DNA of 64,000 bases, taken from sequence record OP778610. One strand, 5' to 3'. A program made the translations under genes and the position numbers. Source of the DNA: Escherichia phage W70. Below are positions 10,968-35,433 of the stretch, piece by piece (positions within the stretch are counted from its first letter, which is position 1; the number at the start of each line of letters is the position of its first letter). Below the pieces are notes generated by a model. It worked only from the letters and a program-made list of their open reading frames with translations, was not told the DNA's origin and did no database searches.

Positions 10968-10983
10968 TAGCCAAAACATTAAC

Positions 10984-10999: not shown

Positions 11000-11030
11000 T
11001 CACTAAATAACATTATCCAGGAGTATTAAC

Positions 11031-11189: not shown

Positions 11190-11485
11190 TGATTAAAGTT
11201 ATTGCACTTACTGCCTTATTGTGTATACCATTTTTGGCGCACGGTACTAAGTTTTACGGTGCTAACTTGATAGATTGTAAAGCTCATATGCTGGACCATG
11301 AAACAGGCAACAAATTTGTTAAGCCTTTCCAGATCAATCCGGCGGTGTTTACTGACGGTGTTTTATATCAGGAAGGTAAAGCCAGTACGCTGATAATCCA
11401 TTACGATCCAGCGACAAAGAAAGGTAGTTTATCAATCCAGGTTGAAGGCGCGGAAGAGTTTTCAGGTAAAATAATCTGCAATTAA
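11186..11485 (+). CDS. hypothetical secreted protein (N-terminal signal peptide)
   Basis: MMIKVIALTALLCIPFLAHG hydrophobic leader; 99 aa. Confidence 0.5.
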   Translation: MMIKVIALTALLCIPFLAHGTKFYGANLIDCKAHMLDHETGNKFVKPFQINPAVFTDGVLYQEGKASTLIIHYDPATKKGSLSIQVEGAEEFSGKIICN

Positions 11486-11493
11486 TATGTTAA

Positions 11494-11522
11494 GGCCCGC
11501 CATTGTGCGGGCCTTTCTTTTA
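11494..11522 (+). terminator. rho-independent terminator
   Basis: GGCCCGC-CATTGT-GCGGGCC followed by TTTCTTTT. Confidence 0.65.
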
Positions 11523-11545
11523 TGAAAATAATTTTGAAAATGTTG

Positions 11546-11660
11546 TTGACAGCACCGATTAAAAGCGTATGATGTATTACATCAGGACGGGGAACCAAAC
11601 AAGTAACTCCCCGTTAAGTAGTCCAGGAGTAAGACATACGAAAACCTCCCCTGATAAAAT
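11546..11660 (+). promoter_or_regulatory. orphan promoter/UTR cassette without ORF (possible decayed gene or short transcript)
   Basis: TTGACA(11546)-N16-TATGAT, hairpin CGGGGA..TCCCCG, SD AGGAGTAAGAC followed by ATA instead of ATG (compare AGGAGTAAGAGAAATG at 16112-16130). Confidence 0.4.
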
Positions 11661-11663
11661 AGT

Positions 11664-11722
11664 TTGACAATAGTTTTTAGTACTGTATAATACATTACAT
11701 CAAGGGGAGAATAGTTCTCCCC
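11664..11722 (+). promoter_or_regulatory. promoter cassette TTGACA-N16-TATAAT plus hairpin GGGGAGAA-TAG-TTCTCCCC
   Basis: consensus hexamers; perfect 8-bp stem at 11704-11722 in 5' UTR. Confidence 0.55.
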
Positions 11723-11742
11723 ACATCAAAGGAATCAAAACA

Positions 11743-11970
11743 ATGGCTATCGTAATCACTCGCGTATCTGGTACAGTTGGCAATGCGGCAGTAGTAGCGG
11801 TTATCACTAATAAGAAAGGTGCGGAACTACATTTTGCAATGTATAACTGGTCAGTTGATGAGTTTGGTCAGTACGCTAGTGTAGAATACATTGAAACCTA
11901 TCAAGTGCCGTCGATTAGTTTAACTGATTTGGGCGTTGAGCGTATCCTTTGCCTGGATGAATTAAATTAA
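11743..11970 (+). CDS. hypothetical small protein
   Basis: 75 aa; SD AAAGGAA. Confidence 0.5.
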   Translation: MAIVITRVSGTVGNAAVVAVITNKKGAELHFAMYNWSVDEFGQYASVEYIETYQVPSISLTDLGVERILCLDELN

Positions 11971-11978
11971 AAAAGTAC

Positions 11979-12038
11979 TTGCAAAGTAAAACGAATAACG
12001 TATAATACATTACATCAAGGGGAGAAATGATTCTCCCC
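11979..12038 (+). promoter_or_regulatory. promoter cassette TTGCAA-N16-TATAAT plus hairpin GGGGAGAA-ATGA-TTCTCCCC
   Basis: near-duplicate of 11664 cassette. Confidence 0.5.
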
Positions 12039-12055
12039 ACTAAGAGGAAACTAAG

Positions 12056-12196
12056 ATGAAAACTTGCCAGTGTGGTAAAAAGTCTATTGCTGGTCTGCGT
12101 CGCGGTGTTGCTTTATGCCAGTATCATTACAATAGTCAAGTATGGGGTAAAACGTGGGCTGACCAGGTTGAAGCAGCAAAGAAAGCAAAAAAGTAA
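12056..12196 (+). CDS. hypothetical small Cys-containing protein (46 aa)
   Basis: SD AAGAGGAAA; MKTCQCGKKSIAGLRRGVALCQYHY...; not in ORF track. Confidence 0.45.
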   Translation: MKTCQCGKKSIAGLRRGVALCQYHYNSQVWGKTWADQVEAAKKAKK

Positions 12197-12254
12197 TTGA
12201 CAGCAGGAAGAAAAAGAGTAAACTGTATTACGTAGGGCGGCAATAGCGCCGCCA
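12197..12254 (+). promoter_or_regulatory. promoter cassette TTGACA-N16-TAAACT plus hairpin GGCGGC-N6-GCCGCC
   Basis: related to 16047 cassette (shared GAGTAAACTGTATTAC). Confidence 0.5.
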
Positions 12255-12274
12255 CATCAAAGAGAGAAATCAAA

Positions 12275-12493
12275 ATGGCTAATATCCGCACACTGTTAAA
12301 AAATGCAAAAGAAGTTTTATTTTCTGACGATGAATATTTTAATCGCAATATCAAAGGCGTTCGGAACATTAAGGATATAAAGGAATTATTTGGAATCAAA
12401 GGTAACGTATATCGTAAAGGATTGCACGGTAATAATTTTGAATATAAGTTGGCTGATAGTGATTATAATTTTACACTGACCATCATTAGTTGA
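12275..12493 (+). CDS. hypothetical small protein
   Basis: 72 aa; SD AGAGAGAAA. Confidence 0.5.
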   Translation: MANIRTLLKNAKEVLFSDDEYFNRNIKGVRNIKDIKELFGIKGNVYRKGLHGNNFEYKLADSDYNFTLTIIS

Positions 12494-12512
12494 AAGTTTT
12501 AATCTAGCGCTA

Positions 12513-12541
12513 TTGACTTAAGCCGATAGTGCTGGCATAAT
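12513..12541 (+). promoter_or_regulatory. promoter TTGACT-N17-CATAAT
   Basis: shares CATAATAACTTTTAT with 12806 promoter. Confidence 0.5.
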
Positions 12542-12573
12542 AACTTTTATCAAGAACATCAAAGGAAAGTAAA

Positions 12574-12786
12574 ATGGCTATCATTACTAAAATCAAAGTA
12601 AACAAAACACTGGTTAAGCTGGAAGAAGTGAAAGCAGGTTATAAAGTATCTTGGTGTGGCATGTATCGGATGTTCACAGATATAGACGATGCAATCAATT
12701 ACTACACTAACACGATTAAAAACTTTGTTCGTGCTGATGTGATTATTGCAGTGGAAGCACATAAAGCATCGAAAGAAAGTAAGTAA
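12574..12786 (+). CDS. hypothetical small protein
   Basis: 70 aa; SD AAAGGAAAG. Confidence 0.5.
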   Translation: MAIITKIKVNKTLVKLEEVKAGYKVSWCGMYRMFTDIDDAINYYTNTIKNFVRADVIIAVEAHKASKESK

Positions 12787-12805
12787 AATTATTACCACAG
12801 TACTA

Positions 12806-12834
12806 TTGACAACTACTGATAGTACTGACATAAT
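12806..12834 (+). promoter_or_regulatory. promoter TTGACA-N17-CATAAT
   Basis: duplicate of 12513 promoter. Confidence 0.5.
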
Positions 12835-12879
12835 AACTTTTATTAAGTACTACAAATCAAACAAAGAGAGAATACAATC

Positions 12880-13119
12880 ATGGCTAACAACAAAACTTTT
12901 AACGGTCACAAAAACAAAACTCATTGGAATGTTTCCTTGTGGATTAATAACGATGCATCACTGTATCGACTGGCTAATGATTTCATCGTCGCTAACACTA
13001 ATCGTAACGATGCGGCCCGTCATATGATGTTATTTTTAGAACAAACCGGACAACATAAAACACCGGACGGATTCAAGTATAGTACTACTGCAATCCGTGC
13101 CGCGATGGTTGGGATGTAA
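12880..13119 (+). CDS. hypothetical small protein
   Basis: 79 aa; SD AAAGAGAGAA. Confidence 0.5.
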   Translation: MANNKTFNGHKNKTHWNVSLWINNDASLYRLANDFIVANTNRNDAARHMMLFLEQTGQHKTPDGFKYSTTAIRAAMVGM

Positions 13120-13138
13120 TATTCAGTACTGAATCAAT

Positions 13139-13164
13139 GGCGGGGAATAGTTCCCGCCTTTACT
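13139..13164 (+). terminator. terminator-like hairpin
   Basis: GGCGGGGAA-TAG-TTCCCGCC followed by TTTACT. Confidence 0.45.
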
Positions 13165-13176
13165 GAGGATTATCTA

Positions 13177-13461
13177 ATGAGCAAAGTAATTAATAGTAAA
13201 GTACTGAGTAAAACATTAACACTCACTGAGTGCACCAATGGCTTTTGGCTATACGATTCTACCCGTGGCATGAATATAGCTATGCAAGCGAAATCAGAGG
13301 AGGCTGCATTTGTTGAAGCCCTGGGATACTATCAGAGACGTCTACAGGAAGTAGAAAACAATTACACCAGCCTTAAAGCGAAAGTAGACCATTTCATCGG
13401 GCAAGTGGTAGAAGATGATGAGGATGGTCACTATTGCGAACGCTGCGGATCTTACAGCTAA
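13177..13461 (+). CDS. hypothetical protein with C-terminal CxxC
   Basis: 94 aa; SD GAGGA upstream. Confidence 0.5.
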   Translation: MSKVINSKVLSKTLTLTECTNGFWLYDSTRGMNIAMQAKSEEAAFVEALGYYQRRLQEVENNYTSLKAKVDHFIGQVVEDDEDGHYCERCGSYS

Positions 13462-13469
13462 AAAAGTAG

Positions 13470-13528
13470 TTGACACAAAGAAACAAAACAAGTAAATTAA
13501 TCACATCAGGCGGGGAATGGACCCGCTA
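13470..13528 (+). promoter_or_regulatory. promoter cassette AAAAGTAGTTGACA-N17-TAAATT plus hairpin GCGGGGAATGGACCCGC
   Basis: near-identical (~50 bp) to cassette at 15587. Confidence 0.55.
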
Positions 13529-13548
13529 AAAGAGAAGAGAGAAATCAA

Positions 13549-13881
13549 ATGAGCTTTTTATCTATCGTACAGACTAACTTTGAAAATGATTTCATTGCTC
13601 AAGCTATCAACATCGACAAAGGTATCCCAAATATCAATTTTGGTTACAATAGCGGTGGTTATGAAAGATACCAGTATTTTGTAACTGACGATGGAAGTGT
13701 TTTAGGTATCAATACAGTGATGGCTAATATCCAAAACATTAATTTCAATGATCCCGATGAGCGCTCATTTTATATCGTCGGTATCCAGGTAAACTATGAA
13801 GATGATACGTTAACCGATGATTACACAGGTGAAGTATTAGAAAGTGTTTACGGTGATGAATCAGAAGAAGAAGAAGAATAA
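13549..13881 (+). CDS. hypothetical acidic protein
   Basis: 110 aa; poly-Glu C-terminus. Confidence 0.5.
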   Translation: MSFLSIVQTNFENDFIAQAINIDKGIPNINFGYNSGGYERYQYFVTDDGSVLGINTVMANIQNINFNDPDERSFYIVGIQVNYEDDTLTDDYTGEVLESVYGDESEEEEE

Positions 13882-13896
13882 GATTAGAAAAAGTAG

Positions 13897-13955
13897 TTGA
13901 CGGAAAGAGTATAAAGAAGTAAGATAATTAACGAATAGGGGGAAACATCTTCCCC
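13897..13955 (+). promoter_or_regulatory. promoter cassette AAAAGTAGTTGACG-N17-TAAGAT plus hairpin GGGGGAA-ACATC-TTCCCCC
   Basis: same upstream AAAAGTAG element as 13470 and 15587. Confidence 0.5.
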
Positions 13956-13980
13956 CATAAACAAAAAGAGAGATTGAAAA

Positions 13981-14163
13981 ATGACAGAACTGATTGCAAC
14001 TACAAAGATCGAAGGCGTTAACGATGTTACTTTGTCCTATGATCCTTCTACTCTGGTTTATGTTGTGAAATATGGCAGAATGATCGCAGAACTTGATTGC
14101 ATTGATGAGGCTTTCGAAAAATATTTCGAACTTATCAATATTGCTTATGATGACTACCGTTAA
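13981..14163 (+). CDS. hypothetical small protein
   Basis: 60 aa; SD AAAGAGAGA. Confidence 0.5.
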   Translation: MTELIATTKIEGVNDVTLSYDPSTLVYVVKYGRMIAELDCIDEAFEKYFELINIAYDDYR

Positions 14164-14193
14164 TATACAACGTAAAAATAGAAAGGTGATAAA

Positions 14194-14403
14194 ATGATCA
14201 ATGAAAAAACAATCAATGATGTTCGCGAGGAAGTTTTAGCCGTTGCTGTAGAATCGGGTGCACGTCAGGCATTTTGGAAAGCTACTGATCTTTACCCCGA
14301 GCAAGCCGAAAATATTCTTAATCAGGTCAGCGTTAAACTTGAACAAATAGGCAAACTGAAAACAAGTGAGCGCCTCGACCAAATCATTAAAGAAAGTTTT
14401 TGA
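14194..14403 (+). CDS. hypothetical small protein
   Basis: 69 aa; SD AAAGGTGA; no separate promoter, co-transcribed with 13981 gene. Confidence 0.5.
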   Translation: MINEKTINDVREEVLAVAVESGARQAFWKATDLYPEQAENILNQVSVKLEQIGKLKTSERLDQIIKESF

Positions 14404-14445
14404 TTGACTTTTAACATTGCCCCTATTAGTATTCAGGGGCAAGAT
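14404..14445 (+). promoter_or_regulatory. promoter TTGACT-N17-TAGTAT overlapping inverted repeat GCCCCT..AGGGGC
   Basis: -10 hexamer lies inside the inverted repeat at 14419-14440. Confidence 0.4.
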
Positions 14446-14467
14446 TAAAAGAAACAAGGACACAAAG

Positions 14468-14779
14468 ATGAACGATATTGTTAGCATTATAGGTTTACTG
14501 GGCGTAGGCTACGTCGCCACATCAATTACAATGAGTTACTTCAATAAAAGGCGTGATAAAATGTTTTGTTACTTTGAATACCGTTACCGTGGTAAGGTTG
14601 GATCATCCCGTGACTATGGTCCGATGTTAGAGATTGATGCGGTTGGCGCTATGCAGTATCGCCAGTCACTAGGGGCTGAAATAATTTTTGAAGTGTACCG
14701 CAGTACAGAAGAAGAGATCCACGACATTATTGACGAGCGTCAATATTACCACGAACAACAAACTAAACGCAGGGCTTAA
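14468..14779 (+). CDS. hypothetical membrane-anchored protein
   Basis: start moved to internal ATG with SD AAGGACACAAAG; N-terminal TM helix IVSIIGLLGVGYVATSI; 103 aa. Confidence 0.5.
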   Translation: MNDIVSIIGLLGVGYVATSITMSYFNKRRDKMFCYFEYRYRGKVGSSRDYGPMLEIDAVGAMQYRQSLGAEIIFEVYRSTEEEIHDIIDERQYYHEQQTKRRA

Positions 14780-14782
14780 CAT

Positions 14783-14920
14783 ATGACTAATACAAACCGA
14801 CAAAAAATCATCAAAACTAAAAAACTTGATTTCAATACTTATCAAGAATGCAAGAAGAAAGTAAAAGATAAGCGAGAGAACAAGCGGCACGAATGGATAA
14901 GCAATACAATCGATCTTTAA
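14783..14920 (+). CDS. hypothetical small basic protein (45 aa)
   Basis: ATG overlapping upstream stop; MTNTNRQKIIKTKKLDF...; not in ORF track. Confidence 0.35.
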   Translation: MTNTNRQKIIKTKKLDFNTYQECKKKVKDKRENKRHEWISNTIDL

Positions 14921-14929
14921 TATCAACCT

Positions 14930-14953
14930 AAGCCCACTATGTGGGCTTTTCTT
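14930..14953 (+). terminator. rho-independent terminator
   Basis: AAGCCCAC-TAT-GTGGGCTT followed by TTTTCTT. Confidence 0.7.
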
Positions 14954-14966
14954 ATGGAGAACAGAC

Positions 14967-15194
14967 ATGATTAATATTCTTTCACTTACAGAAGTGATCC
15001 GCTTCCTCAAAAACAACGCCCTGGGAACGTCTATAACGTATCTAATCCCGCAAGGTAAGGATTATGCCAGCGTTACACGTTCAATCACTGCTACGGCTTC
15101 CAGAGAAGAAATAAAGGTCAGCGTAAGCCAATTGTTGATTGTTGATCCGTCATCTTGCGAGACTATCCAGGCAGTAAAGATAATTAGAAAATAA
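14967..15194 (+). CDS. hypothetical small protein
   Basis: 75 aa; SD GGAGAA upstream. Confidence 0.45.
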   Translation: MINILSLTEVIRFLKNNALGTSITYLIPQGKDYASVTRSITATASREEIKVSVSQLLIVDPSSCETIQAVKIIRK

Positions 15195-15279
15195 TTTAAA
15201 AAACTTCTTGCATCCATTATTGAGAAGATGTACATTAGTTTCATCAAGACGAGATGATGACAATCAAAAGGTGATTACT

Positions 15280-15573
15280 ATGTTATACGAAGTTTTTGCG
15301 GGATTTTGTTTTTATGGTGCTGCCGCCGTTCGCCAATGTGATGATTATGTAGTTGAGTCATTCGATGATCCTTTGGCGTGTGAGATTGTTACTACGGCGT
15401 ATGAGCAAGATCGCCGTTGGATTAATCCGGCCTGTATCGCATCGCCTGAGGTTGAACCTATGCCGGAAGGTGAGGAATTAACAGAGGAAGACTTGCAAGA
15501 AGTAAAAGAAGTTATGAGCTACATGATTGATAATCTGGACGCTGAAAACTTACAACGGGCTTTGCAAAAATAA
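15280..15573 (+). CDS. hypothetical protein
   Basis: start moved to ATG with SD AAAAGGTGA (track ORF starts further upstream at 15208); 97 aa. Confidence 0.45.
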   Translation: MLYEVFAGFCFYGAAAVRQCDDYVVESFDDPLACEIVTTAYEQDRRWINPACIASPEVEPMPEGEELTEEDLQEVKEVMSYMIDNLDAENLQRALQK

Positions 15574-15586
15574 TTTGAAAAAGTAG

Positions 15587-15643
15587 TTGACTCAAAGAAG
15601 CAAAACAAGTAAATTATTCACATCAGGCGGGGAATGGCCCCGC
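15587..15643 (+). promoter_or_regulatory. promoter cassette AAAAGTAGTTGACT-N17-TAAATT plus hairpin GCGGGGAATGGCCCCGC
   Basis: duplicate of 13470 cassette. Confidence 0.55.
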
Positions 15644-15659
15644 TAAACAAAAAGAGATT

Positions 15660-16040
15660 ATGAAAATGGCTAAAAATACTAACGTTTGTGATTACGCTAA
15701 CCTGGTTACTCTGAATGCAGATTCTAAAATTAAACTAAGCGAGGTTGAAGCTATTCATATTCTGGCCCGTCGTTGGTTCCAACAATCATACGGCAATACT
15801 TATTTCTCTTTAAGTGTAGACGTGGAGATCGCTGGTAAATTGGTTCAAGTGGTTAGCGTGCCGTTCCAATATGGTTATGGTGATCATTTCGATACCGTGG
15901 CACTAGAAGAATTTAGCAAGGTTATCAACATGGAAGGCAAGGAGTTTTCACGCGGTAGCTATCTATCCCGTTTTTGCCGTGACAACAATATCCCTGTTTA
16001 TTCGAACGCCGTTGATGTTAAACGCAAAAAAGATATGTAA
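15660..16040 (+). CDS. hypothetical protein
   Basis: 126 aa; SD AAAAAGAG upstream. Confidence 0.5.
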   Translation: MKMAKNTNVCDYANLVTLNADSKIKLSEVEAIHILARRWFQQSYGNTYFSLSVDVEIAGKLVQVVSVPFQYGYGDHFDTVALEEFSKVINMEGKEFSRGSYLSRFCRDNNIPVYSNAVDVKRKKDM

Positions 16041-16046
16041 TTATTA

Positions 16047-16106
16047 TTGACAGTACAAAGAAAACGAGTAAACTGTATTACATAGAAAGCGGGAACACTT
16101 CCCGCT
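16047..16106 (+). promoter_or_regulatory. promoter cassette TTGACA-N16-TAAACT plus hairpin AGCGGGAA-CAC-TTCCCGCT
   Basis: related to 12197 cassette. Confidence 0.5.
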
Positions 16107-16127
16107 TATATTCTAGGAGTAAGAGAA

Positions 16128-16481
16128 ATGATCGAACAAATCAAAACTACGACGGCTAATGTAACGGGAACGGTAGCACACTTTACTAGTGATGAATCGC
16201 GGGGCGTTCCCTATTGTGCTGTACATGTAAACACTGAGGGTAACTACTGGTTTACGGTTTACGGATCATATTCATTTGGACGGCCAGGGCATCAAAAAAT
16301 TCTGGATAAAGTACAACCAACGGGTAAAAATATTACCGCTGAGATGTTTAATAAATCACTTGCAAAGTTAAAAGCACTGAAAGATTTTGGCTTTAAAGAT
16401 CTAGTTATCAAACGTGATGAAAAATTCCGCTTCCGTAATGATCTGGCAAATCGCTACTATGAAATCTATGAAGCACTTTAA
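16128..16481 (+). CDS. hypothetical protein
   Basis: 117 aa; SD TAGGAG upstream. Confidence 0.5.
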   Translation: MIEQIKTTTANVTGTVAHFTSDESRGVPYCAVHVNTEGNYWFTVYGSYSFGRPGHQKILDKVQPTGKNITAEMFNKSLAKLKALKDFGFKDLVIKRDEKFRFRNDLANRYYEIYEAL

Positions 16482-16487
16482 TAAAAA

Positions 16488-16510
16488 GGGCCGCAATAGC
16501 GGCCTTTTCT
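16488..16510 (+). terminator. rho-independent terminator
   Basis: GGGCCGC-AATA-GCGGCC followed by TTTTCT; a diverged copy without U-tract at 16806-16826. Confidence 0.65.
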
Positions 16511-16511
16511 A

Positions 16512-16540
16512 TTGACACCTGCTAACCATTCCTTTAATAT
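16512..16540 (+). promoter_or_regulatory. promoter TTGACA-N17-TAATAT
   Basis: immediately after the terminator. Confidence 0.5.
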
Positions 16541-16591
16541 GCATCTTGTAGGGCAAGCAATAACGCAAGCCCACAAATAGGACAAACTATT

Positions 16592-16789
16592 ATGACCATC
16601 GCTAATGAACTGATCGCCGTATTGAATGAAGCCAAATCTAATGAAATCGATGTACAGATCAAGGAATTACCCAATGGCCTGATAGGTTGCACTTGCACCT
16701 GTATCGGAAGTGACTACACAGAGGTAAGCTCTCTAGAATCTCTCATTCGTCACTTGAAATCAATAGTTGAAGATTGGAGAATCATCTAA
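16592..16789 (+). CDS. hypothetical small protein
   Basis: 65 aa; last gene of small-ORF battery. Confidence 0.5.
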   Translation: MTIANELIAVLNEAKSNEIDVQIKELPNGLIGCTCTCIGSDYTEVSSLESLIRHLKSIVEDWRII

Positions 16790-16959
16790 TAAACCAGGGG
16801 CCGCAATAGTGGCCCTTGTCATGTCCATCGGTGCGACTCTCCCAACCCTATTAATCCCTTCCCCATTTGGATCATCATAACTTACCTCATCTAATCATTA
16901 ATCTAATCCCCTTTGGAATCTCTCCCCCACAAATCTAAACTAATCTGATAGCTTACCAT

Positions 16960-25977: not shown

Positions 25978-26316
25978 TTATAATTCTTCAGTATTTTCCA
26001 CAGCATGAGCCAGTTCGCTCAAGAAATCTTTCAAGCCAATGGTGTACGATTCAACAAGAGCCTCTGCAATTTGGCTCTTAAACTCCGAATCGGCTAACTC
26101 TTCCATCCGGCTATGTACGCTGATGTTCGTAATCAGAAACTTAACGATATAGCTCGCCTTGTAGAGCAAAGGGAAGTAATCTTCTACCATGTTTTCAATA
26201 CGGAAGTATTTTTCTGCGTTGTATTCCCACATAAAAACAGCCGTCAGTTCTTTGGCAAGTTCATGGTCTTTTTTAGCCATTGCAATCAGATGTTCGATCT
26301 CTGCTTGTTCAACCAT
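25978..26316 (-). CDS. hypothetical protein
   Basis: 112 aa; ORF-track frame. Confidence 0.5.
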   Translation of the reverse strand: MVEQAEIEHLIAMAKKDHELAKELTAVFMWEYNAEKYFRIENMVEDYFPLLYKASYIVKFLITNISVHSRMEELADSEFKSQIAEALVESYTIGLKDFLSELAHAVENTEEL

Positions 26317-26528
26317 TAAATGACCTCCTCTTTAAGAATCTCACGATGATCTGCGCTGTACCATCCTTTCATCGTATTAACTACACCAACAGCCTCGCTG
26401 TATGTTTCAAATTTTGATTCTTCATGTGGGCCAATACGGACAGTTACCCAAAACAAGTTAAATACTTTACGATGAACTTCGTAATGCGTTGATTCACCTT
26501 TCCGAACTTTAACGATCCGAACTTTCAT
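26316..26528 (-). CDS. hypothetical small protein
   Basis: start moved to ATG with SD GGAGGG; 70 aa. Confidence 0.45.
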   Translation of the reverse strand: MKVRIVKVRKGESTHYEVHRKVFNLFWVTVRIGPHEESKFETYSEAVGVVNTMKGWYSADHREILKEEVI

Positions 26529-26724
26529 TACACCACCCTCCAAAAGTCATAAATGCTTGATCAACCATATCTTTCCACTCAGGGTAGAGAGCACAAATCA
26601 TGATGTAGACCTCTTCATCAATGTCTTCACACTCCTCCATTTCCAAATACTCTACCACAGGTATGGGCAGAAGGCAATTTATTTCTTTACCCCTGAATTT
26701 CAGACCCTTAACTAATTTTAGCAT
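26509..26724 (-). CDS. hypothetical small protein
   Basis: SD AAGGA; 71 aa. Confidence 0.45.
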   Translation of the reverse strand: MLKLVKGLKFRGKEINCLLPIPVVEYLEMEECEDIDEEVYIMICALYPEWKDMVDQAFMTFGGWCNESSDR

Positions 26725-26725
26725 A

Positions 26726-26965
26726 TCAATCCTTAATCACGTAGAATCCTGATTCGTTCATCAGGACAAAGGACTTGCCGAAGAAATCCTTACGATTATC
26801 CAAAACAAGGTAGAATCTTCGCTCAGACGAGAGGTGATGTGGGTCAGCCATATAGCTTACCCTCGCCGTCATGCCCTTATTCTTCCCTCTTGTGATCCTT
26901 ACCCTTGTACCATTCTCATATTTAATATCCACCGAACCTCCATCGCAACTCTTTATGAATCTCAT
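26726..26965 (-). CDS. hypothetical small protein
   Basis: 79 aa; overlaps upstream gene end. Confidence 0.45.
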   Translation of the reverse strand: MRFIKSCDGGSVDIKYENGTRVRITRGKNKGMTARVSYMADPHHLSSERRFYLVLDNRKDFFGKSFVLMNESGFYVIKD

Positions 26966-27425
26966 CCAACCCTGGTTTCAGTTTTGGAAGATCTCTTATA
27001 AACTCAGGATAGAGGACATTAACGAAGTCAATCTCATCATCTGTGGGTTTTTGAATATCTTCGAAATACTCGTCAAGATTGAATATCTGCCAATCCTTAC
27101 ACCCTGCCTTTCGGACACCCATGAAGATTTCATTGTTACAGGTAGCCATCCAGGAGATCCTAGATCCTTTACCATTCGCATTCGGCAATGTTGAAACACA
27201 GAAGCGTGGTACTTCCTGAACCTTAAAACCCTCGTCATAGTATCCACGACCACGTTGAAATTTAAACTTGGTCTTTCCCACTCTTTGACTAATCTTCATA
27301 TCTCGGCGAAAGCTGTGGTCCCCCGTATAGATCAGTTGACGAAGACACTGAGTATATCTGATCTTTTTCCAATTCCAATCTCGAATGAGTATTTCATAGA
27401 CTTCCTTAAATGCTTCATACGCCAT
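26922..27425 (-). CDS. hypothetical protein
   Basis: 167 aa; ORF-track frame. Confidence 0.5.
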   Translation of the reverse strand: MAYEAFKEVYEILIRDWNWKKIRYTQCLRQLIYTGDHSFRRDMKISQRVGKTKFKFQRGRGYYDEGFKVQEVPRFCVSTLPNANGKGSRISWMATCNNEIFMGVRKAGCKDWQIFNLDEYFEDIQKPTDDEIDFVNVLYPEFIRDLPKLKPGLDEIHKELRWRFGGY

Positions 27426-27654
27426 CGGAGGATTCCTTATCTAGAGCACCAACAATCTCGAACTTTGCTACGCCTAAAACAACCACATGACCCAAGGATT
27501 GTACACCTGTCCACGGAGTACCATTCCTCTTAGGTCGCTTACCAGTTACATCGCAGAAATCATTCCGCATTTCTGTTGCATCAAACAACTCGCCTTTCGG
27601 AAAAACATCTTTGAAGTCAGCGATCACGTTAAGACATTTCAGTTTCATATTCAA
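27415..27654 (-). CDS. hypothetical small protein
   Basis: 79 aa. Confidence 0.45.
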   Translation of the reverse strand: MNMKLKCLNVIADFKDVFPKGELFDATEMRNDFCDVTGKRPKRNGTPWTGVQSLGHVVVLGVAKFEIVGALDKESSDGV

Positions 27655-27991
27655 ACACTCCTCTCTCTAATCTTTGTTTGGCAAGTAACTCCCTTTGTGC
27701 TCTAAGTGGCATCCTGAAAAATATCACAACATTCTCCAAATCCGCTGCCCGTTTTTTAAGCCCTTTGGTGAATTTACCTTCCCGCTTAATTGCATCATAT
27801 ATACCCCTGTACTCCTCTTCAATGGAGTTGTCTTCAAATATCTGGTTGGATACCATACTATCAATCTCCATACCGAGAGCTTCAAAGCTATACCAGTCTA
27901 CATGTTCTTCTGTAACAGGACCTCTTTCTTTGTACACTTGTCCAGTTATTTCATTAACTACGATCGTTGTCATTGGAGTATCTCCTTGCAT
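27629..27991 (-). CDS. hypothetical protein, FFRMP-motif paralog A
   Basis: C-terminal VVIFFRMPLRAQR shared with 27954 gene. Confidence 0.5.
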   Translation of the reverse strand: MQGDTPMTTIVVNEITGQVYKERGPVTEEHVDWYSFEALGMEIDSMVSNQIFEDNSIEEEYRGIYDAIKREGKFTKGLKKRAADLENVVIFFRMPLRAQRELLAKQRLERGVFEYETEMS

Positions 27992-28298
27992 TATACGGCA
28001 TCCTGAAAAAGTTTAAAAGGTTGTAGATAGCAGCAACCCTCTCTCTTACCTTTTCGTCAGAGAAACAATCAGGACCTTCGCTGCAAAGTTTAAAATCTAT
28101 ATCTTCCCACTCAGCGACCACAGATTCGTCTTCGAAAACTCCCTTTTCAAACATCATTCGAATCTCCATCTCCATACCCTTGAAGATTGTAAAAGTAACA
28201 TCTTCAGGATCAAGGTATGATACATTGTCTATAAAGAGGCCCCTTTCGGGATAAATGACCATATGCAAAATAATCCTCCTGTGTCCAATATAATCCAC
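27954..28298 (-). CDS. hypothetical protein, FFRMP-motif paralog B
   Basis: C-terminal LLNFFRMPYNARR. Confidence 0.5.
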   Translation of the reverse strand: MDYIGHRRIILHMVIYPERGLFIDNVSYLDPEDVTFTIFKGMEMEIRMMFEKGVFEDESVVAEWEDIDFKLCSEGPDCFSDEKVRERVAAIYNLLNFFRMPYNARRYSNDNDRS

Positions 28299-28386
28299 CC
28301 AGAAGCGATTTTGACGAGGTTTTCTTAAGATAATGATAAATCACCTTACCTCGTCGTAGACCTCGTTAGAATCGTTCTGAGAGCGT

Positions 28387-28641
28387 TTAAGCCATACCGA
28401 GCAAATTCATCTCTTTTAACAGGCCTTCCAAGGTAGCATTAAACAACACTGGCTTACCTTCCTCCAGCTTATTGAAGAAGATTTCATGAGTCTCATTGTC
28501 TATCTTCGCCATCTCTTTTACCACTTCTTCTGACAAAAAGATATCGCTACCTCTTAACCCAGGGAACATTAAGAGGATTGCCGTTTTTGAATCAGTTGCC
28601 CAACCCTTTCCACCATCCAGACTGAATACCTTGATCATCAT
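28387..28641 (-). CDS. hypothetical protein
   Basis: start moved to ATG right after upstream stop with SD GGAG; 84 aa. Confidence 0.45.
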   Translation of the reverse strand: MMIKVFSLDGGKGWATDSKTAILLMFPGLRGSDIFLSEEVVKEMAKIDNETHEIFFNKLEEGKPVLFNATLEGLLKEMNLLGMA

Positions 28642-28642
28642 T

Positions 28643-28939
28643 TTACTCCAAATTAGCCAGTGCAGTTCGGACTTCAAGAAGAGTTGCCTCTCTTGACTCA
28701 TTTCTTTCCGAGAAATCACGAATTATCATCTTGTACTTCATTTCTTCTTCAGTACGGAGAATCTTCTGTTCGATCAACTTGTAAACTTTGTCCGCTCTTT
28801 CTGGAAACAACGCTGCAAAGAGATTCCAGTCTTCCAATCGACCTTCGTAAGACTCTCCAGAGGTAAAGTACCGATCTCTTTCGATGCTGTCAACAAAATA
28901 ATAACCGAATTCACCATAACGCCAAGTTTCATTTTTCAT
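28643..28939 (-). CDS. hypothetical protein, YFTS..GR.EDWN paralog A
   Basis: motif RYFTSGESYEGRLEDWNLFAALFPE shared with 29101 gene. Confidence 0.5.
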   Translation of the reverse strand: MKNETWRYGEFGYYFVDSIERDRYFTSGESYEGRLEDWNLFAALFPERADKVYKLIEQKILRTEEEMKYKMIIRDFSERNESREATLLEVRTALANLE

Positions 28940-29097
28940 TTGATGTACCGCGCCGCAGCAGTGCCGATAAGGAATCCAGCAGGAACTGCGACGATGATAG
29001 CTTCAACCATTTTCAGGTCCGCTGCAACACAAGCTGCACCAACAACAACAGAACCAGCCCAGATAGCAATTACACGTTTCAAAAATTTAGTATTCAT
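28936..29097 (-). CDS. hypothetical small membrane protein (53 aa)
   Basis: MNTKFLKRVIAIWAGSVVVGAACVAADLKMVEAIIVAVPAGFLIGTAAARYIK; ATGA overlap with downstream gene; not in ORF track. Confidence 0.4.
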   Translation of the reverse strand: MNTKFLKRVIAIWAGSVVVGAACVAADLKMVEAIIVAVPAGFLIGTAAARYIK

Positions 29098-29100
29098 TCG

Positions 29101-29340
29101 TTAGTCTCCTGATTTTGTTAAGTTTTCTTTTATTTTTACGTATTCAATTAAAGAGTTTGCAAGTTCACCATCGATTTTCTCACAAACCATTAGTATCTCT
29201 CTTACCTTTTCGGGATGAACAGACTCATAAAAGTTCCAATCCTCTGTTCTTCCTTCTGGAGTTTTAGAAGTGAAGTATTCTTCTCTGTCTTGCTCCGGTA
29301 AGAGATAATATACAAGATTCAGCCTTTTATCGTCAAGCAC
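29101..29340 (-). CDS. hypothetical protein, YFTS..GR.EDWN paralog B
   Basis: motif EYFTSKTPEGRTEDWNFYESVHPE. Confidence 0.5.
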   Translation of the reverse strand: MLDDKRLNLVYYLLPEQDREEYFTSKTPEGRTEDWNFYESVHPEKVREILMVCEKIDGELANSLIEYVKIKENLTKSGD

Positions 29341-29349
29341 TTTATCACC

Positions 29350-29724
29350 TTATTCGTAAAAAAGTTTATCCGCTTGCTCATTCAACCAACCCTGGCGAAA
29401 AGCCCCCTTGAGTACCTCTGCCCACTTCGGATTTGCTGCCTCTAAGAGAAGAATTTCTTCTTTCTCTATGTTCATAGGATCAGCAAAGAAATCCAAAATC
29501 TGTTCATTAAATATACCCTCTATCAAGATCCCTTTATATTTCAACGTCAAACGTTTTGTCATAAAACCTTGAGATAACAAAGCCTCCTCCACATCGAGTT
29601 TCGTAGTTGGAGGGTTTGGAAAAGGAAAGCCCGTCATAGGTGTTGGCGATGCACCTGTCTTCACAAAGGTATTCCCTCCAGTATTATTGAAGAAACCTTT
29701 CGCATTTTTATCATAAAGCGACAT
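29350..29724 (-). CDS. hypothetical protein
   Basis: 124 aa. Confidence 0.5.
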   Translation of the reverse strand: MSLYDKNAKGFFNNTGGNTFVKTGASPTPMTGFPFPNPPTTKLDVEEALLSQGFMTKRLTLKYKGILIEGIFNEQILDFFADPMNIEKEEILLLEAANPKWAEVLKGAFRQGWLNEQADKLFYE

Positions 29725-29727
29725 ATT

Positions 29728-30165
29728 TCATACCCCCTCTTGAATTTTTATCTCTGCCTCGTCCAAAGCTTCACCCATTGCAAGGATATACCTTGAAATT
29801 TCAGGAAACAACGCTTCAAACATCTCTATCTCTTCTTCAAGTATATCCGTTGGATCGAGGAAATACTCTTCAAGGACTATCCGCTTTGTCCCACTCTTGT
29901 TGCCATAAGTAACAAAAACGAAACGATCAGGTTTGCCAATAGAATCTTTGGAGGTTCTCCATTGGAAAAGATGCCTGTTTGAACTTATGTTTATCCTTTT
30001 GTCAGCCTTGTCCAGCGGGATTCTAAAACTTACGGATGTTGACATTCCTTCGGATTGAGTCCATTTTTCACTCTTCTTAAAAATATTGTTCCGGTATCTG
30101 TTTTTACCTAAGGCATTAAAAGTCCACTGCCTGCTCAATCTCTCGATTATCTCTTTAGTTTTCAA
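29728..30165 (-). CDS. hypothetical protein
   Basis: 145 aa; ATGA overlap with upstream gene. Confidence 0.5.
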   Translation of the reverse strand: MKTKEIIERLSRQWTFNALGKNRYRNNIFKKSEKWTQSEGMSTSVSFRIPLDKADKRINISSNRHLFQWRTSKDSIGKPDRFVFVTYGNKSGTKRIVLEEYFLDPTDILEEEIEMFEALFPEISRYILAMGEALDEAEIKIQEGV

Positions 30166-30683
30166 AACGGTATGTCCTCGTCAACAATAAATTTTATAGC
30201 ATTCTTTACAGCCGCTTTATTCAGATGTTGAACACGCTGGAAGAACATTAGGTTCAAGTCAAGAAGAATATCATCATCTCCGTACAACGCCGTGAAAAGA
30301 TCAAGCTCTTCATCTGTCGGATGCGTGGGATTCTCAAATAAGCCCTCAAACACCACCTGGGCCTCATTTCTTTTAGCCAGCGTGGTTGAGTCTCGATAGA
30401 TATTTAATACCGTGTGTACATCATCTACGCTTAGGATTTTGACACATTCCAGATCTCCTGTGTCACCATCGAGATAAAGAGTGATCGCAGGAGTTGACCA
30501 ATTTGATTCACTTATTGCATAAACGTAGATGCTTTTGCGATTACCAACTGCAATAGACTCTTCAATTTTCTTTTCTGCCGCCTTAAAGAAAGGTTGGTGT
30601 TTGATCCAATGCTCCCAACCAATCCAACGAGCACCCTTACCATACGCATTCAGCACATGATTCTCAATGTTACGTTTACTCAT
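30162..30683 (-). CDS. hypothetical protein
   Basis: 173 aa. Confidence 0.5.
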   Translation of the reverse strand: MSKRNIENHVLNAYGKGARWIGWEHWIKHQPFFKAAEKKIEESIAVGNRKSIYVYAISESNWSTPAITLYLDGDTGDLECVKILSVDDVHTVLNIYRDSTTLAKRNEAQVVFEGLFENPTHPTDEELDLFTALYGDDDILLDLNLMFFQRVQHLNKAAVKNAIKFIVDEDIPF

Positions 30684-30735
30684 TTAAAACCCCCATAAAA
30701 GAAAAGCCAGCCACCTTTCGGTGACTGGCCTAGAG

Positions 30736-31203
30736 TTAGCTACTAATCACCACGAATGCAGTAACTATAGCATACAGAAATCCAATTGCAACAAAAATTA
30801 TCATAATGGGGTCAGAGGTTACTCGCTTAAGTTTTCCTAAGAAAGTTGATCGGTATTTGTGTTCCTTCTCCATTTTGTTTATCAAAATGATGAAAGAGTT
30901 GATATGAATATCTTCAGCACTCTCTGCAAAAGGTGTGTACTTGAACGTACCTTCTGTATTTGCAACAAAGCTGCGATGATACTTTTTACCGTCATAACTT
31001 TCTATAAGAAGACCATCCTTTGTCACCCGATAACTGACTGAACGGAACTTGTCATAAAAAACGTATGCCCTGAATCCATCTTGATCGGGAACAGCCTTTC
31101 TGACGTAGCCGTCAAAAAACTCCAATCTCTTTCCAGAATTCAGTTCCAAGTTGTCAGCTAACATAGGGAGTTGACTTACGTATGTAAAGTACATAATGAT
31201 CAT
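30736..31203 (-). CDS. hypothetical protein with C-terminal TM anchor
   Basis: C-term DPIMIIFVAIGFLYAIVTAFVVISS. Confidence 0.5.
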   Translation of the reverse strand: MIIMYFTYVSQLPMLADNLELNSGKRLEFFDGYVRKAVPDQDGFRAYVFYDKFRSVSYRVTKDGLLIESYDGKKYHRSFVANTEGTFKYTPFAESAEDIHINSFIILINKMEKEHKYRSTFLGKLKRVTSDPIMIIFVAIGFLYAIVTAFVVISS

Positions 31204-31395
31204 CCTTCCACTAAGCTGAAATCATTTTATCATATTATGAAAAAATACAACAGCGAAGATCGGTCATGAACACTATGTTGTTAATTTTTACAACAGGACT
31301 CCAAAAAAGTATTTAAATCACTTAAATCGATTTTAATACATAGAAAATACCTATGGACCAGATCTGACCCATAGGCTATACCTTAATGTGAAATT

Positions 31396-31974
31396 TTATT
31401 CATTTCCCCGATATTTTTGAATTGCGATCGAAGTCCTTGGTTCAGCCAGTCCAGTTCCATATGCATACCATTTGCCAGTGAGTGTTTTTCGAGCACCGTA
31501 GGACCCAATCTCCATGTCGTCACAATAAACATCGTAACCGATCGGGGTCTTAACTAAAAAGAGTACATTACGAGGAATCCCTAAGAGGGTAAACATCGAT
31601 ATGGCATCTTTTGCGATCTCGTGAGAAATCTTCTCTGCATTCTTTTTACTGGTTGCACTTCTAAACAGTTCCATCTTTAAGAAGATATTGAAATGAATAT
31701 CATCAAGAACCATCTCATCACGGAAGCATGGGGTCACAGCCATCCAACTGCCATCTTCCAACTTCCCTTCTTTGTCGAGTTGGAGGAATGATTGCTCTGC
31801 GGAAGCCACTGCATATTTCCCGTTCTGGACAATTCGAAGATCAGTAACATCTTCGGGGCATGTATGGTCCATAGCATCATCATCCACATAGCTTGGGACA
31901 ACCTTATCATTGAAACCTTTACATTTCCACCAACTGTGGGCATCAATAAACAATGTGAAGTCGATGTTTGACAT
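31396..31974 (-). CDS. hypothetical protein
   Basis: start moved to MSNIDF ATG adjacent to upstream stop; 192 aa. Confidence 0.45.
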   Translation of the reverse strand: MSNIDFTLFIDAHSWWKCKGFNDKVVPSYVDDDAMDHTCPEDVTDLRIVQNGKYAVASAEQSFLQLDKEGKLEDGSWMAVTPCFRDEMVLDDIHFNIFLKMELFRSATSKKNAEKISHEIAKDAISMFTLLGIPRNVLFLVKTPIGYDVYCDDMEIGSYGARKTLTGKWYAYGTGLAEPRTSIAIQKYRGNE

Positions 31975-31975
31975 T

Positions 31976-32479
31976 TTAGCCTCGCTTACCATTCTGGAAT
32001 GCACGTTTAGTAATTTTTGACATAACCATCAGGTCTTCTATTGAAGTGCTTGGATGATACTTATTCAGGTAGGCTTCCATAGCACCGACCAGATCAGAAA
32101 GCTCTACCAACTCCATGATCTTACATTTTTGTTTAGCTGCATCCTTGAGTTCATCAAGTTCTTCTTGAATCTTAGTGATCTCTCCAAGCTCTCCGCGAGG
32201 GAAAGTATCCAGATGATAACCAGGTTTTTGTTCTTCAATACCCTCATGTCCGACAACACGAAATTTTCCGGCAGCGAAACGCCAAACACCTTCAAAATAC
32301 ACAATGTAATGTTCCGACTCTACAATGAAGATAGTGTCGAAATTTTTAAATTTAAAAAATCCTTCGACAAGATTATCTTCTGTACTGAAACTTCCTAAGA
32401 AGTTGAGTTCTTGCTCCGTATGAAATTCCATAACCATATTTTCGTTCTGGAGTTTCGTCAGCAATTTTAAAATTTTCAT
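31976..32479 (-). CDS. hypothetical protein, possible MazG-like all-alpha NTP pyrophosphohydrolase
   Basis: start moved to MKILKL ATG with SD AGAGGAGAGAA; C-terminal GELGEITKIQEELDELKD..ELVELSDLVGAMEAYL. Confidence 0.35.
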   Translation of the reverse strand: MKILKLLTKLQNENMVMEFHTEQELNFLGSFSTEDNLVEGFFKFKNFDTIFIVESEHYIVYFEGVWRFAAGKFRVVGHEGIEEQKPGYHLDTFPRGELGEITKIQEELDELKDAAKQKCKIMELVELSDLVGAMEAYLNKYHPSTSIEDLMVMSKITKRAFQNGKRG

Positions 32480-32490: not shown

Positions 32491-32979
32491 TTATGGGCAA
32501 CACCGTGGAGATCTTCCACAGAAGAATTGCCAATTGGTTTCTGAGTCTTTGTAATTTACAAACCCTATCCTTCCGCACCCTTGTCCACTACAAACAGCCT
32601 CACGAGGATGATAGTCTATACTACAAGAGTGTGGATGGTCAAATGCTTCTCGTATTTCAACACATAGTCGGCTTAACCAGGCGAACATTTTTGGCATAGA
32701 AGCCTCAAGAAGTTTAAGTTCGTCGATCGTAGGTTTGTCTTTCTCAAGGAAGAAGTCATCTATCTCGGAAAACAAAATAACGTTTTGAACTATCCCGTCA
32801 GTTACCTTGTAAGAGAACTCCTCAGTAAGCCTCACGGTAACTTCCTCTATCAGTTCTTTTTCATTATCTTGATCTTTTGCCAGTCTTTCCTCAATCCATC
32901 GGATAATGAAGAATCTTTCTCTCTGAACATCCATGTTCAAAGTGTTGATTATTTTTTCATAGATTAGGTTTCCTTCCAT
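32491..32979 (-). CDS. hypothetical Cys-rich protein
   Basis: C-terminal Cys/His cluster HPHSCSIDYH..CSGQGCGR..CGRSPRCCP. Confidence 0.5.
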   Translation of the reverse strand: MEGNLIYEKIINTLNMDVQRERFFIIRWIEERLAKDQDNEKELIEEVTVRLTEEFSYKVTDGIVQNVILFSEIDDFFLEKDKPTIDELKLLEASMPKMFAWLSRLCVEIREAFDHPHSCSIDYHPREAVCSGQGCGRIGFVNYKDSETNWQFFCGRSPRCCP

Positions 32980-34181: not shown

Positions 34182-34577
34182 TTATAGGCATTTCACACCA
34201 TAAATGATCATCAATACAACAAGTGTCAGTGTATAGATCAAACTCCCATAAAGTCCATGACTGGTGATTTTAAGCTTTTTCTTAAAGCACATCATTGTAC
34301 TATAAATTACACCAGTCCAGTGAATCACTAAAATCGCGGTGGCAATATCTGAAACATTACCCGCCCAAAGCATCAGAGAGTATGAGAGGTACATTGCAAA
34401 ACCTGATAGCAGGAATGTAAACAAATAACCAATTACACTTTTCTTTTTCTGATATACGATTTTATTTTTCATGGTATCGATGTTCAGATTGTAATAGGCA
34501 ACTGCCACTATCTGGATAATCAGCCCCAAGATAAAGAAAGAGATCAGTGTAACGTATTCAAAAATTGGTGCAGTCAT
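34182..34577 (-). CDS. hypothetical integral membrane protein
   Basis: 4 predicted TM helices. Confidence 0.5.
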   Translation of the reverse strand: MTAPIFEYVTLISFFILGLIIQIVAVAYYNLNIDTMKNKIVYQKKKSVIGYLFTFLLSGFAMYLSYSLMLWAGNVSDIATAILVIHWTGVIYSTMMCFKKKLKITSHGLYGSLIYTLTLVVLMIIYGVKCL

Positions 34578-34975
34578 TATAATTTCTCCTCAATAATTTC
34601 AGAAATGAGATTCGAGATCTCGAAAGTTTCTAACTCTTCGACGTGTGACAAGCGCTGGAGGCGCTCGATAACAAAGTCTTTCTTCACAAATACATCCGAC
34701 AAATGCTCAATGTCCTGCTTACCACGCATTCCGCTAACCAACTGCTTGTATCGGATGAGTTCAATATACTCCTCTTTAGACATTACTGTCAAGCGTTCAT
34801 CTGCACAAATATGCAAAAATACTTGCTTGCTGTCCCAGTCAAATCCTCTGTACACTGCCTCTACTTCACGGCGTGGTGTCCCGCCCAGTGTTACATGACC
34901 AACCTCAACAGGGATAGATACCTGATCATCAGGTCGGCACTGCTGCAACTCCTCAATCAATTCAGAAACTTTCAT
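34577..34975 (-). CDS. hypothetical protein
   Basis: 132 aa. Confidence 0.5.
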   Translation of the reverse strand: MKVSELIEELQQCRPDDQVSIPVEVGHVTLGGTPRREVEAVYRGFDWDSKQVFLHICADERLTVMSKEEYIELIRYKQLVSGMRGKQDIEHLSDVFVKKDFVIERLQRLSHVEELETFEISNLISEIIEEKL

Positions 34976-34977
34976 AG

Positions 34978-35433
34978 TTACCCCTGCTTAAGCTTGAAAG
35001 ATTTAAATGCTTCGATAAAGTCCATTTCTTTTTGCGTATACTTATGATCGATTGTATCAGCGAAAAGAGGGCAACGACCATCAACCAACTTCACATCCCA
35101 CAGATGTTGAGGGAGAATAAATGCAATGGCTGTAAGTGCACCATTCAAAGAATCATTCTCCTCGCAGAAAAATGCGTAAGGAATCTTCTCTATGTTTGGA
35201 GCTAAAAATCCTTCTGCAAAATTAAGCATCTTAGATTGATAGCCTCCGTTCAACAAGATCATTGTTTGGTCTTTGCTTTGCCACTGATCTACAAGGTTGT
35301 ATCTGTCATCATATCGATCGGCATAGGCAAAGCCATAATGACCTACAAGGTTTGCTGCTGCATGTGCTGCTTGGATACCTGCTTGGATTCCCATCATATA
35401 GCTGTTTACCAATACGTACATCCGAGTTTTCAA
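34978..35433 (-). CDS. hypothetical protein
   Basis: 151 aa. Confidence 0.5.
   Translation of the reverse strand: MKTRMYVLVNSYMMGIQAGIQAAHAAANLVGHYGFAYADRYDDRYNLVDQWQSKDQTMILLNGGYQSKMLNFAEGFLAPNIEKIPYAFFCEENDSLNGALTAIAFILPQHLWDVKLVDGRCPLFADTIDHKYTQKEMDFIEAFKSFKLKQG

Follow-up and report, generated by a model that had tools for sequence, protein, structure and literature searches.

What holds together a run of small, unnamed genes packed onto one strand of a phage genome? The question is raised by positions 25978-30683 of a 64,000-nucleotide stretch of Escherichia phage W70 DNA (record OP778610), referred to below as the window. An earlier note on this DNA described about 18 tightly packed or overlapping minus-strand open reading frames (ORFs), including two paralog pairs, and read the paralogy as a sign of the rapid diversification typical of host-interaction or anti-defence loci. 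We find that the block consists of 15 real genes, seven of which have in common a module of ~38 residues. The explanation we prefer, for which we judge the chances to be about even, is that the block unites non-structural accessory genes in a conserved array on one strand, and that seven of them are diverged paralogs of one family with an intracellular protein-binding role. Small genes of unknown function are numerous in large virulent phages, and blocks such as 25978-30683 are typical of them; this one is an ordinary kind of phage accessory region.

Fifteen genes in a dense array

The block lies in an rV5-like phage of E. coli and is 99.9-100% identical to DNA of Escherichia phage A73 (OP778609, Vequintavirinae) and matches four further relatives, A7_1, A5-4, UPEC06 and vB_EcoM-LTH01 (LTH01), at 92-97% (megablast). 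A73 has been described as a strain of the 137-kb phage W70, for which a new genus, Septuagintavirus, was proposed (PMC11370258). All 15 genes, designated here by their first coordinate, have intact counterparts in the four relatives, with one exception: LTH01 lacks 27954. Among the five phages, which are 84-100% identical per gene, the pooled ratio of nonsynonymous to synonymous polymorphism (pN/pS) is 0.03-0.24 for all 15 genes, and the pairwise ratio of the corresponding substitution rates (dN/dS) is 0.02-0.41. We therefore take the 15 ORFs as real genes under purifying selection.

The packing is as dense as had been described. Neighboring genes overlap by 1-38 nt at their starts and stops or are separated by 1-9 nt, the lone exception being a gap of 88-124 nt at 28299-28386. 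The count of about 18 was too high, probably because extra ORFs in other frames had been included. Those at 26996-27253, 27724-27885, 28210-28344, 28774-28932 and 30512-30649 lie in other frames of block genes and are taken as putatively spurious. Fourteen of the genes are annotated in A73. The fifteenth, 27629-27991, was missed in the annotations of A73, A5-4 and A7_1 and is annotated in UPEC06 and LTH01.

A common module in seven genes

The module is found in seven of the 15 genes, which we divide into subfamilies A1/A2, B, C/C' and D/D':

30162-30683, minus strand: subfamily B, 173 aa; phrog_12009 (PHROG E 1e-36); module at 30231-30356
29728-30165, minus strand: subfamily A1, 145 aa; phrog_12686 (PHROG E 1e-19), cross-hit to phrog_12307; module at 29752-29877
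29350-29724, minus strand: subfamily C, 124 aa; module at 29377-29502
29101-29340, minus strand: subfamily D', the shorter RYFTS copy, 79 aa; module at 29164-29289; pN/pS 0.24
28643-28939, minus strand: subfamily D (RYFTS..EDWN..PE), 98 aa; module at 28757-28882
26922-27425, minus strand: subfamily A2, 167 aa; phrog_12307 (PHROG E 2.4e-30), cross-hit to phrog_12686; module at 26958-27083
26509-26724, minus strand: subfamily C', the minimal member, 71 aa; ~21 aa and then the module at 26536-26661

The module is laid out as a β-strand, an acidic loop with D-P and P-T, a helix and a second helix. Its pattern is h-x-[DE]-[EY]-[YF]-F-x-[DE]-(P)-x3-4-(P-T)-x-[DE]-E-h-x-h-F-x-x-L-[YF]-P-E, followed by the second helix, and the RYFTS..GR.EDWN..PE motif noted earlier is the subfamily D version of it.

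A hidden Markov model (HMM) built from the seven window segments only picked up ORFs at three independent Certrevirus loci (CR3, phiTE and CR9), 4-6 per locus, with E values of 1e-7 to 5e-3, and the iterated search converged at 21 ORFs. Each member was also left out in turn and sought among all 688 window ORFs, which recovered 28643 (E 2.5e-7), 29728 (E 4.2e-7), 29101 (E 1.7e-3), 26922 (E 2e-3) and 30162 (E 8e-3). Subfamily profiles with orthologs added were then compared by hhalign. Subfamily A (29728 and 26922) aligned with B (30162) over 121 columns at a probability of 96% (E 2e-9), and with C (29350 and 26509) over the module at 94% (E 2e-7). P values were 7e-4 for A against D (28643 and 29101), 3e-4 for B against C and 1.4e-3 for C against D. 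The pair of genes with a C-terminal FFRMP motif, 27629 and 27954, gave P above 0.1 against any subfamily. On these profile comparisons, A, B and C can be assigned firmly to one superfamily, D probably belongs to it as well, and the FFRMP pair stands apart.

Several observations weigh against the explanation we prefer. The module alignment was chosen by eye before the HMM was built, a bias mitigated by the independent Certrevirus hits. In the leave-one-out test 26509 reached only E 0.08, and 29350 was poorly recovered, at E 1.9; the latter is tied to the family by its blastp match to 26509 (E 8e-6) and by the alignment of A with C. The link of subfamily D is moderate (hhalign probability 17-27%), and B against D is not significant (P 0.12). 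A sigma70-like early promoter has been described in Certrevirus (PMC7344957), and its sequence, TGTTGAC-N-TATAAT, was absent from the coding strand of the block and present elsewhere in the window. A generic promoter scan of the block did no better than on shuffled sequence.

The module HMM also places at least three further members elsewhere in the window:

8020-8838, plus strand: family member, phrog_12463, 272 aa, with a C-terminal module (FKTFFEDWLSPTEEEIQLFKAVNGD); HMM E 1.1e-5
54848-55516, minus strand: probable member, phrog_12410, 222 aa (GMEEYFENPLEPTHGELLMALAL); HMM E 1.5e-3
32491-32979, minus strand: probable member, phrog_12113, 162 aa (IDDFFLEKDKPTIDELKLLEASMP); weak, E 0.07-0.1
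4549-4920, plus strand: weak match to the module HMM

Certrevirus ORFs at the position corresponding to 32491-32979 match the HMM at E 9e-7 to 5e-6. The same model found no family member in the rest of the A73 genome.

Searches of the block proteins against Pfam, NCBIfam, PADLOC and PDB sequences returned nothing above threshold. Weak matches to DUF1266, DUF7675 and KOW fell below the curated cut-offs and were not used. The only library families that hold window proteins are PHROG 12009, 12686, 12307, 12463, 12113, 12410, 15823 and 21419, all of unknown function, which the window proteins match at E values down to 1e-36. These are kept separate in PHROG, whereas here they are joined by the module, by profile-profile comparison and by a common predicted topology. 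At least PHROG 12009, 12307, 12686 and 12463 would collapse into one superfamily with ~10 copies per genome. This unification is modestly new, and with a defined core and one confident model it offers experimenters a single class of target in place of many orphans. The superfamily is narrow in range. A full HMMER pass with subfamily B found only 13 matching clusters among 1.84 billion representative proteins. With 29728 alone as query, one protein cluster was reached, and an alignment seeded with Certrevirus orthologs was needed for wider reach.

Paralogy within the block

Both pairs proposed in the earlier note are true paralogs. The first is formed by the FFRMP genes:

27954-28298, minus strand: FFRMP pair, copy 2, 102-114 aa, starting at GTG 28298 or ATG 28262
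27629-27991, minus strand: FFRMP pair, copy 1, 120 aa, intact; pN/pS 0.13

Their products are 31.5% identical over 92 aa (blastp E 5e-10; Smith-Waterman z 14.2, with none of 2000 shuffles reaching the observed score), and the likeness spans nearly the full length, beyond the FFRMP motif itself. The RYFTS pair, 28643 and 29101, is 37% identical over 46 aa (E 5.5e-10; z 13.5, again 0 of 2000 shuffles). A count of two pairs is nevertheless too low for a block in which seven genes carry one module. The products of 26922 and 29728 are paralogous along their full length, with 24% identity over 151 aa in an all-against-all blastp comparison, as confirmed by PHROG cross-hits in both directions (phrog_12307 and phrog_12686). 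A fourth pair is formed by 26509 and 29350, with a z of 11.4 alongside the blastp match given above, and the all-against-all comparison also linked 29728 to 30162 (E 8e-4).

The FFRMP pair was compared with each of subfamilies A, B, C and D, giving hhalign P values of 0.11-0.69 and Smith-Waterman z of 0.4-0.8. Two proposed links to the module, one aligning FFRMP with [YF]F-x-D-P in the MAFFT register and one through an N-terminal 'PEDVTFTIFKGM' segment, were dropped, the former having no statistical support and the latter on its statistics. By tblastn, 27629 was found only in the five Septuagintavirus-like phages. The FFRMP genes are a duplication of their own, restricted to the genus and without a detectable tie to the module genes. 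The block holds old paralogs of one unnamed family, probably of a common fold, together with one young pair.

Age and selection

Orthologs of the family proteins, at 30-37% identity, are present in 24-26 other records, from Certrevirus phages and unclassified relatives that infect Cronobacter, Pectobacterium, Enterobacter, Klebsiella, Pantoea, Serratia and Acinetobacter. Reciprocal best hits pair 29728 with CR3_187 (32% identity, E 2e-20) and 26922 with CR3_173 (33% identity, E 3e-22), and the A1/A2 duplication therefore predates the split between the genera. The ortholog of 29350 is CR3_185 (E 7.5e-9). The genes follow one order, B-A1-C-(small membrane gene)-D...A2-x-C', in both Septuagintavirus and Certrevirus. 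The two RYFTS proteins are closer to each other (37% identity) than to CR3_183, the single Certrevirus relative of 28643 (28% identity; E 5e-6 with the window-only HMM), which suggests that this duplication is probably genus-specific.

How far do these data bear out the reading of the block as an anti-defence or host-interaction locus that diversifies rapidly, its recent duplications being selected to change? The genes are small, mostly acidic and unnamed, and their region is an accessory one. Only this genus has the FFRMP pair, one copy of which is lost in LTH01, and the RYFTS duplication looks genus-specific. Identity to the relatives is mosaic from gene to gene within the block (84-100%), which suggests recombination among these phages. 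The family proteins are also only 30-37% identical between genera, compared with ~60% for the neighboring CCA-adding enzyme, and hence evolve faster than core genes. These features fit a faster accessory region. Against diversifying selection stand the purifying pN/pS of every one of the 15 genes among the five phages, an A1/A2 split and a gene order older than the genera, and the lack of similarity to any named family in Pfam, NCBIfam, PADLOC and PDB searches. Rapid diversification is thus not supported on a short time scale, the family appears to evolve faster than core genes without detectable positive selection, and we consider an anti-defence locus of this kind possible but unlikely. The block is not evidence for an arms-race hotspot.

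At the DNA level the block is common only to the five close phages; other Vequintavirinae share ~190 nt within 27415-27648. This segment, 27455-27650, is the sole part of the block conserved as DNA (67-71%) in Certrevirus and Salmonella phage SSBI34. The SSBI34 locus, truncated by the end of its record, yielded no family member, and the Seunavirus SSE121 locus gave one weak family match. In Cronobacter phage PBES 02, the counterparts of CR3_189 and CR3_188, which are adjacent but separate genes in CR3, are fused into one 331-aa ORF (6491-7486). CR3_188 is a confirmed family member, and the CR3_189 orthologs of CR9 and phiTE give weak module hits (E 0.4-0.7). The fusion is named 'virion structural protein' in UniProt and 'hypothetical' in GenBank.

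Predicted structure of the module

AlphaFold2 (AF2) modeled 30162 from 41 homologs with a mean predicted local distance difference test score (pLDDT) of 89.7 and a predicted template modeling score (pTM) of 0.83. From its N-terminus the predicted fold runs through two helices into a sheet of six strands, the last of which (residues 110-113) opens the module. The two module helices (residues 124-134 and 138-159) come next, and a further strand and a tail modeled at low confidence close the chain. The model of 29728, made from a shallow alignment, has a pLDDT of 70, rising to ~90 in the module, with the elements in the same order. Both models thus have one topology, in which the module supplies the last strand and two helices. 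This agrees with the alignment of A and B over 121 columns, as far as a model of A with a pLDDT of only 70 allows overall folds to be compared. The best structural neighbor is VC0508 (PDB 2w56), a hypothetical protein of the Vibrio cholerae VSP-II island.

Within subfamily B, F116, P122, T123, E126, L127, D128, F130 and L140 are invariant, and P119, L133, Y134, G135 and D136 nearly so. We read the conserved module residues as structural, forming a T-x-x-E helix capping box, a hydrophobic helix face and Pro/Gly helix breakers. On that reading, the module would form the core around which a common scaffold folds, and not a docking peptide that the members share.

The module could instead be a short docking motif. 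Its acidic [YF]F-x-D-P...EE-h-x-h-F peptide would then bring every member to one partner, for instance the RNA polymerase of the host or a replication protein of the phage, and the remainder of each protein would be cargo. Such a motif would explain why the module is the sole segment common to all subfamilies, why it is strongly acidic (net charge -4 to -10 over 28 residues) and why the minimal member, 26509, has little beyond it. However, AF2 places it as an integral sheet strand with two packed helices (pLDDT 88-94), its invariant residues are mostly hydrophobic or helix-capping, and the homology of A and B extends beyond it. A common docking peptide is therefore improbable. Chance similarity among short AT-rich ORFs, some of them not genes, can be dismissed: several module links between subfamilies are individually weak, but z values of 8-14 that none of 2000 shuffles reached, the hhalign E values of 2e-9 and 2e-7, the independent recovery of the module in other genera by the window-only HMM and the purifying selection on all 15 ORFs refute it.

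Proposed role of the array

Under the explanation we prefer, the array arose through old tandem duplication, keeps its order in the sister genus Certrevirus and is under purifying selection. Its proteins, which are small and mostly acidic, would bind other proteins during infection, inside the cell, and the variable sheet and tails would give each its specificity. Intracellular protein-binding accessory factors are probably what the family provides, and this is our best guess at its function.

Multigene families of small accessory or host-takeover proteins are a feature of large virulent phages, as in the early-gene clusters of T4 and the host-takeover module of SPO1. Like these, the present block is a dense array of small co-oriented genes, for the most part dispensable and of unknown function, with paralogs among them. 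It differs in that seven of 15 genes probably have one fold and their order is conserved across genera, and we found no sequence or fold relationship to the T4 and SPO1 proteins. Of the 227 genes of Bas54, an rV5-like phage, 146 can be dispensed with under laboratory conditions (bioRxiv 10.1101/2025.11.20.689424).

The virion of W70 has been analyzed by electrospray ionization tandem mass spectrometry, which listed 28 proteins, including three RCC1-like proteins (PMC11370258). None of the block genes is among these 28 (PMC11370258), and the block proteins are therefore undetected in the virion. A role of the module as a capsid-targeting signal for packaged proteins was rejected on the same grounds.

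A C-terminal tip resembling that of SSB

The product of 30162 ends in ...KFIVDEDIPF, with the DEDIPF codons at 30165-30182, and resembles the DDDIPF tip of the E. coli single-stranded DNA-binding protein (SSB). The C-terminal peptide of E. coli SSB is a docking site for many genome-maintenance enzymes. DEDIPF is invariant in the four relatives read, and a 44%-identical lineage ends in ..IIEEIPF. Among 2133 ORFs, drawn from the window, from the remainder of the A73 genome and from three Certrevirus loci, an acidic run with an IPF end was found only in 30162 and in A73_119. The latter is an SSB-like protein of 391 aa encoded outside the window (A73 34215-35390), annotated as hypothetical and ending in ..MDFDDDIPF. 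It appears to be the counterpart of Bas52_0087, an SSB-like protein of a related Vequintavirinae phage. That protein, tipped with FDDDIPF, is reported in a 2026 preprint to trigger DRT10 defence and is proposed there to interface with host ExoI (bioRxiv 10.64898/2026.04.29.721553).

The sequence signature of an SSB C-terminus, an acidic run and I-P-F at a free end, as in E. coli SSB (...DFDDDIPF), Bas52_0087 (FDDDIPF) and A73_119 (MDFDDDIPF), is thus present in 30162. In the model of 30162 it sits on a low-confidence tail, with residues 171-173 below a pLDDT of 50. Unlike SSB, 30162 has no oligonucleotide/oligosaccharide-binding (OB) fold for single-stranded DNA and is not an SSB; its tail extends only ~6 residues past the last strand, in place of a long linker.

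This tip makes subfamily B the only concrete lead to a function. A flexible DEDIPF could dock into the SSB-tip pockets of DNA-metabolism proteins such as ExoI, RecQ, PriA and chi, as competitor or adaptor, and subfamily B proteins of Septuagintavirus may act in this way. Going further, subfamily B might consist of non-SSB decoys or adaptors that carry the tip on a compact novel scaffold and block or redirect host enzymes such as ExoI, RecQ or PriA, possibly together with the phage SSB-like protein, and the whole family might be a scaffold showing varied terminal peptides (DEDIPF, EEIPF, FFP[ML]K and others) to different host targets; we regard this further proposal as unlikely. Two points limit what the tip can explain. 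DEDIPF comes right after the last strand, without the long disordered linker of SSB, and access to a pocket is therefore not assured. Most orthologs end differently, those of Certrevirus in FFP[ML]K, IFYPVK or IVFMDQ, and the tip therefore cannot explain the whole family. If the tip is functional, it would represent phage reuse of the SSB docking peptide on an unrelated protein. The copied tip is modestly new. It gives a testable handle and a tie to the Vequintavirinae SSB-like protein and the host ExoI that are reported to control a defence system (bioRxiv 10.64898/2026.04.29.721553).

Other genes of the block and its surroundings

The remaining six genes of the block are neither family members nor part of the FFRMP pair:

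28936-29097, minus strand: hydrophobic gene, 53 aa; grand average of hydropathy 1.18; pN/pS 0.03
28387-28641, minus strand: phrog_14890 (unknown function), 84 aa
27415-27648, minus strand: phrog_4448 (unknown function), 77 aa
26726-26932, minus strand: phrog_15026, 68 aa; weak, sub-threshold KOW-like match
26316-26528, minus strand: phrog_18049 (weak match), 70 aa
25978-26316, minus strand: phrog_13231, 112 aa; acidic, isoelectric point 4.6

The first of these probably encodes a membrane peptide, and a small gene, CR3_184, occupies the same position in CR3. Block genes are annotated as 'hypothetical protein' throughout the relatives, except for one labeled 'ATP synthase gamma chain' in A7_1, a label that is evidently spurious.

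Across the window as a whole, identity to A73 is 99.9% at 18755-64000 and 95% at 1-12554. Between these, a comparison of window 12554-18755 with A73 75501-87458 showed ~6.7 kb of A73 (78694-85449) to have no counterpart in the window, with an identity of only 93-97% on either side of this segment.

The block lies downstream of, and on the same strand as, a set of nucleotide-metabolism genes that includes both ribonucleotide reductases, thymidylate synthase, the CCA enzyme and a second nucleotidyltransferase. Adjoining the two nucleotidyltransferases is a 202-aa protein (31396-32004, minus strand) that matches phrog_4806 ('histidyl tRNA synthetase') at E 5e-56 and the Pfam class II aminoacyl-tRNA synthetase core weakly. 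It is labeled 'putative seryl-tRNA synthetase' in UPEC06 and looks like a truncated aminoacyl-tRNA synthetase-like protein. A strong hairpin directly precedes the first block gene:

30704-30731, minus strand: terminator-like hairpin, 12-bp stem and T-run

A second strong terminator-like hairpin, also a 12-bp stem followed by a T-run, is found at 31349-31376 on the minus strand. The two flank a membrane-protein gene (30736-31203; phrog_12909, 'moron' category), possibly an insert under its own regulation that lies directly upstream of the block.

Three RCC1-like genes come after the block. These are adjoining paralogs (21542-25040, minus strand) encoding β-propeller proteins of 380-414 aa, and their counterparts, W70_237-239, are virion proteins by mass spectrometry (PMC11370258). 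The apparent gap of 326 nt that follows the block (25652-25977, minus strand) contains two mini-ORFs with ribosome-binding sites. One encodes ~36 aa (MLYSYEDSELTG...) and the other, which is hydrophobic in its C-terminal half (MSIWKNN...VMVIATFIVLVLL), ~35 aa. At the matching position the UPEC06 annotation has ORFs of both sizes and that of LTH01 has one of them.

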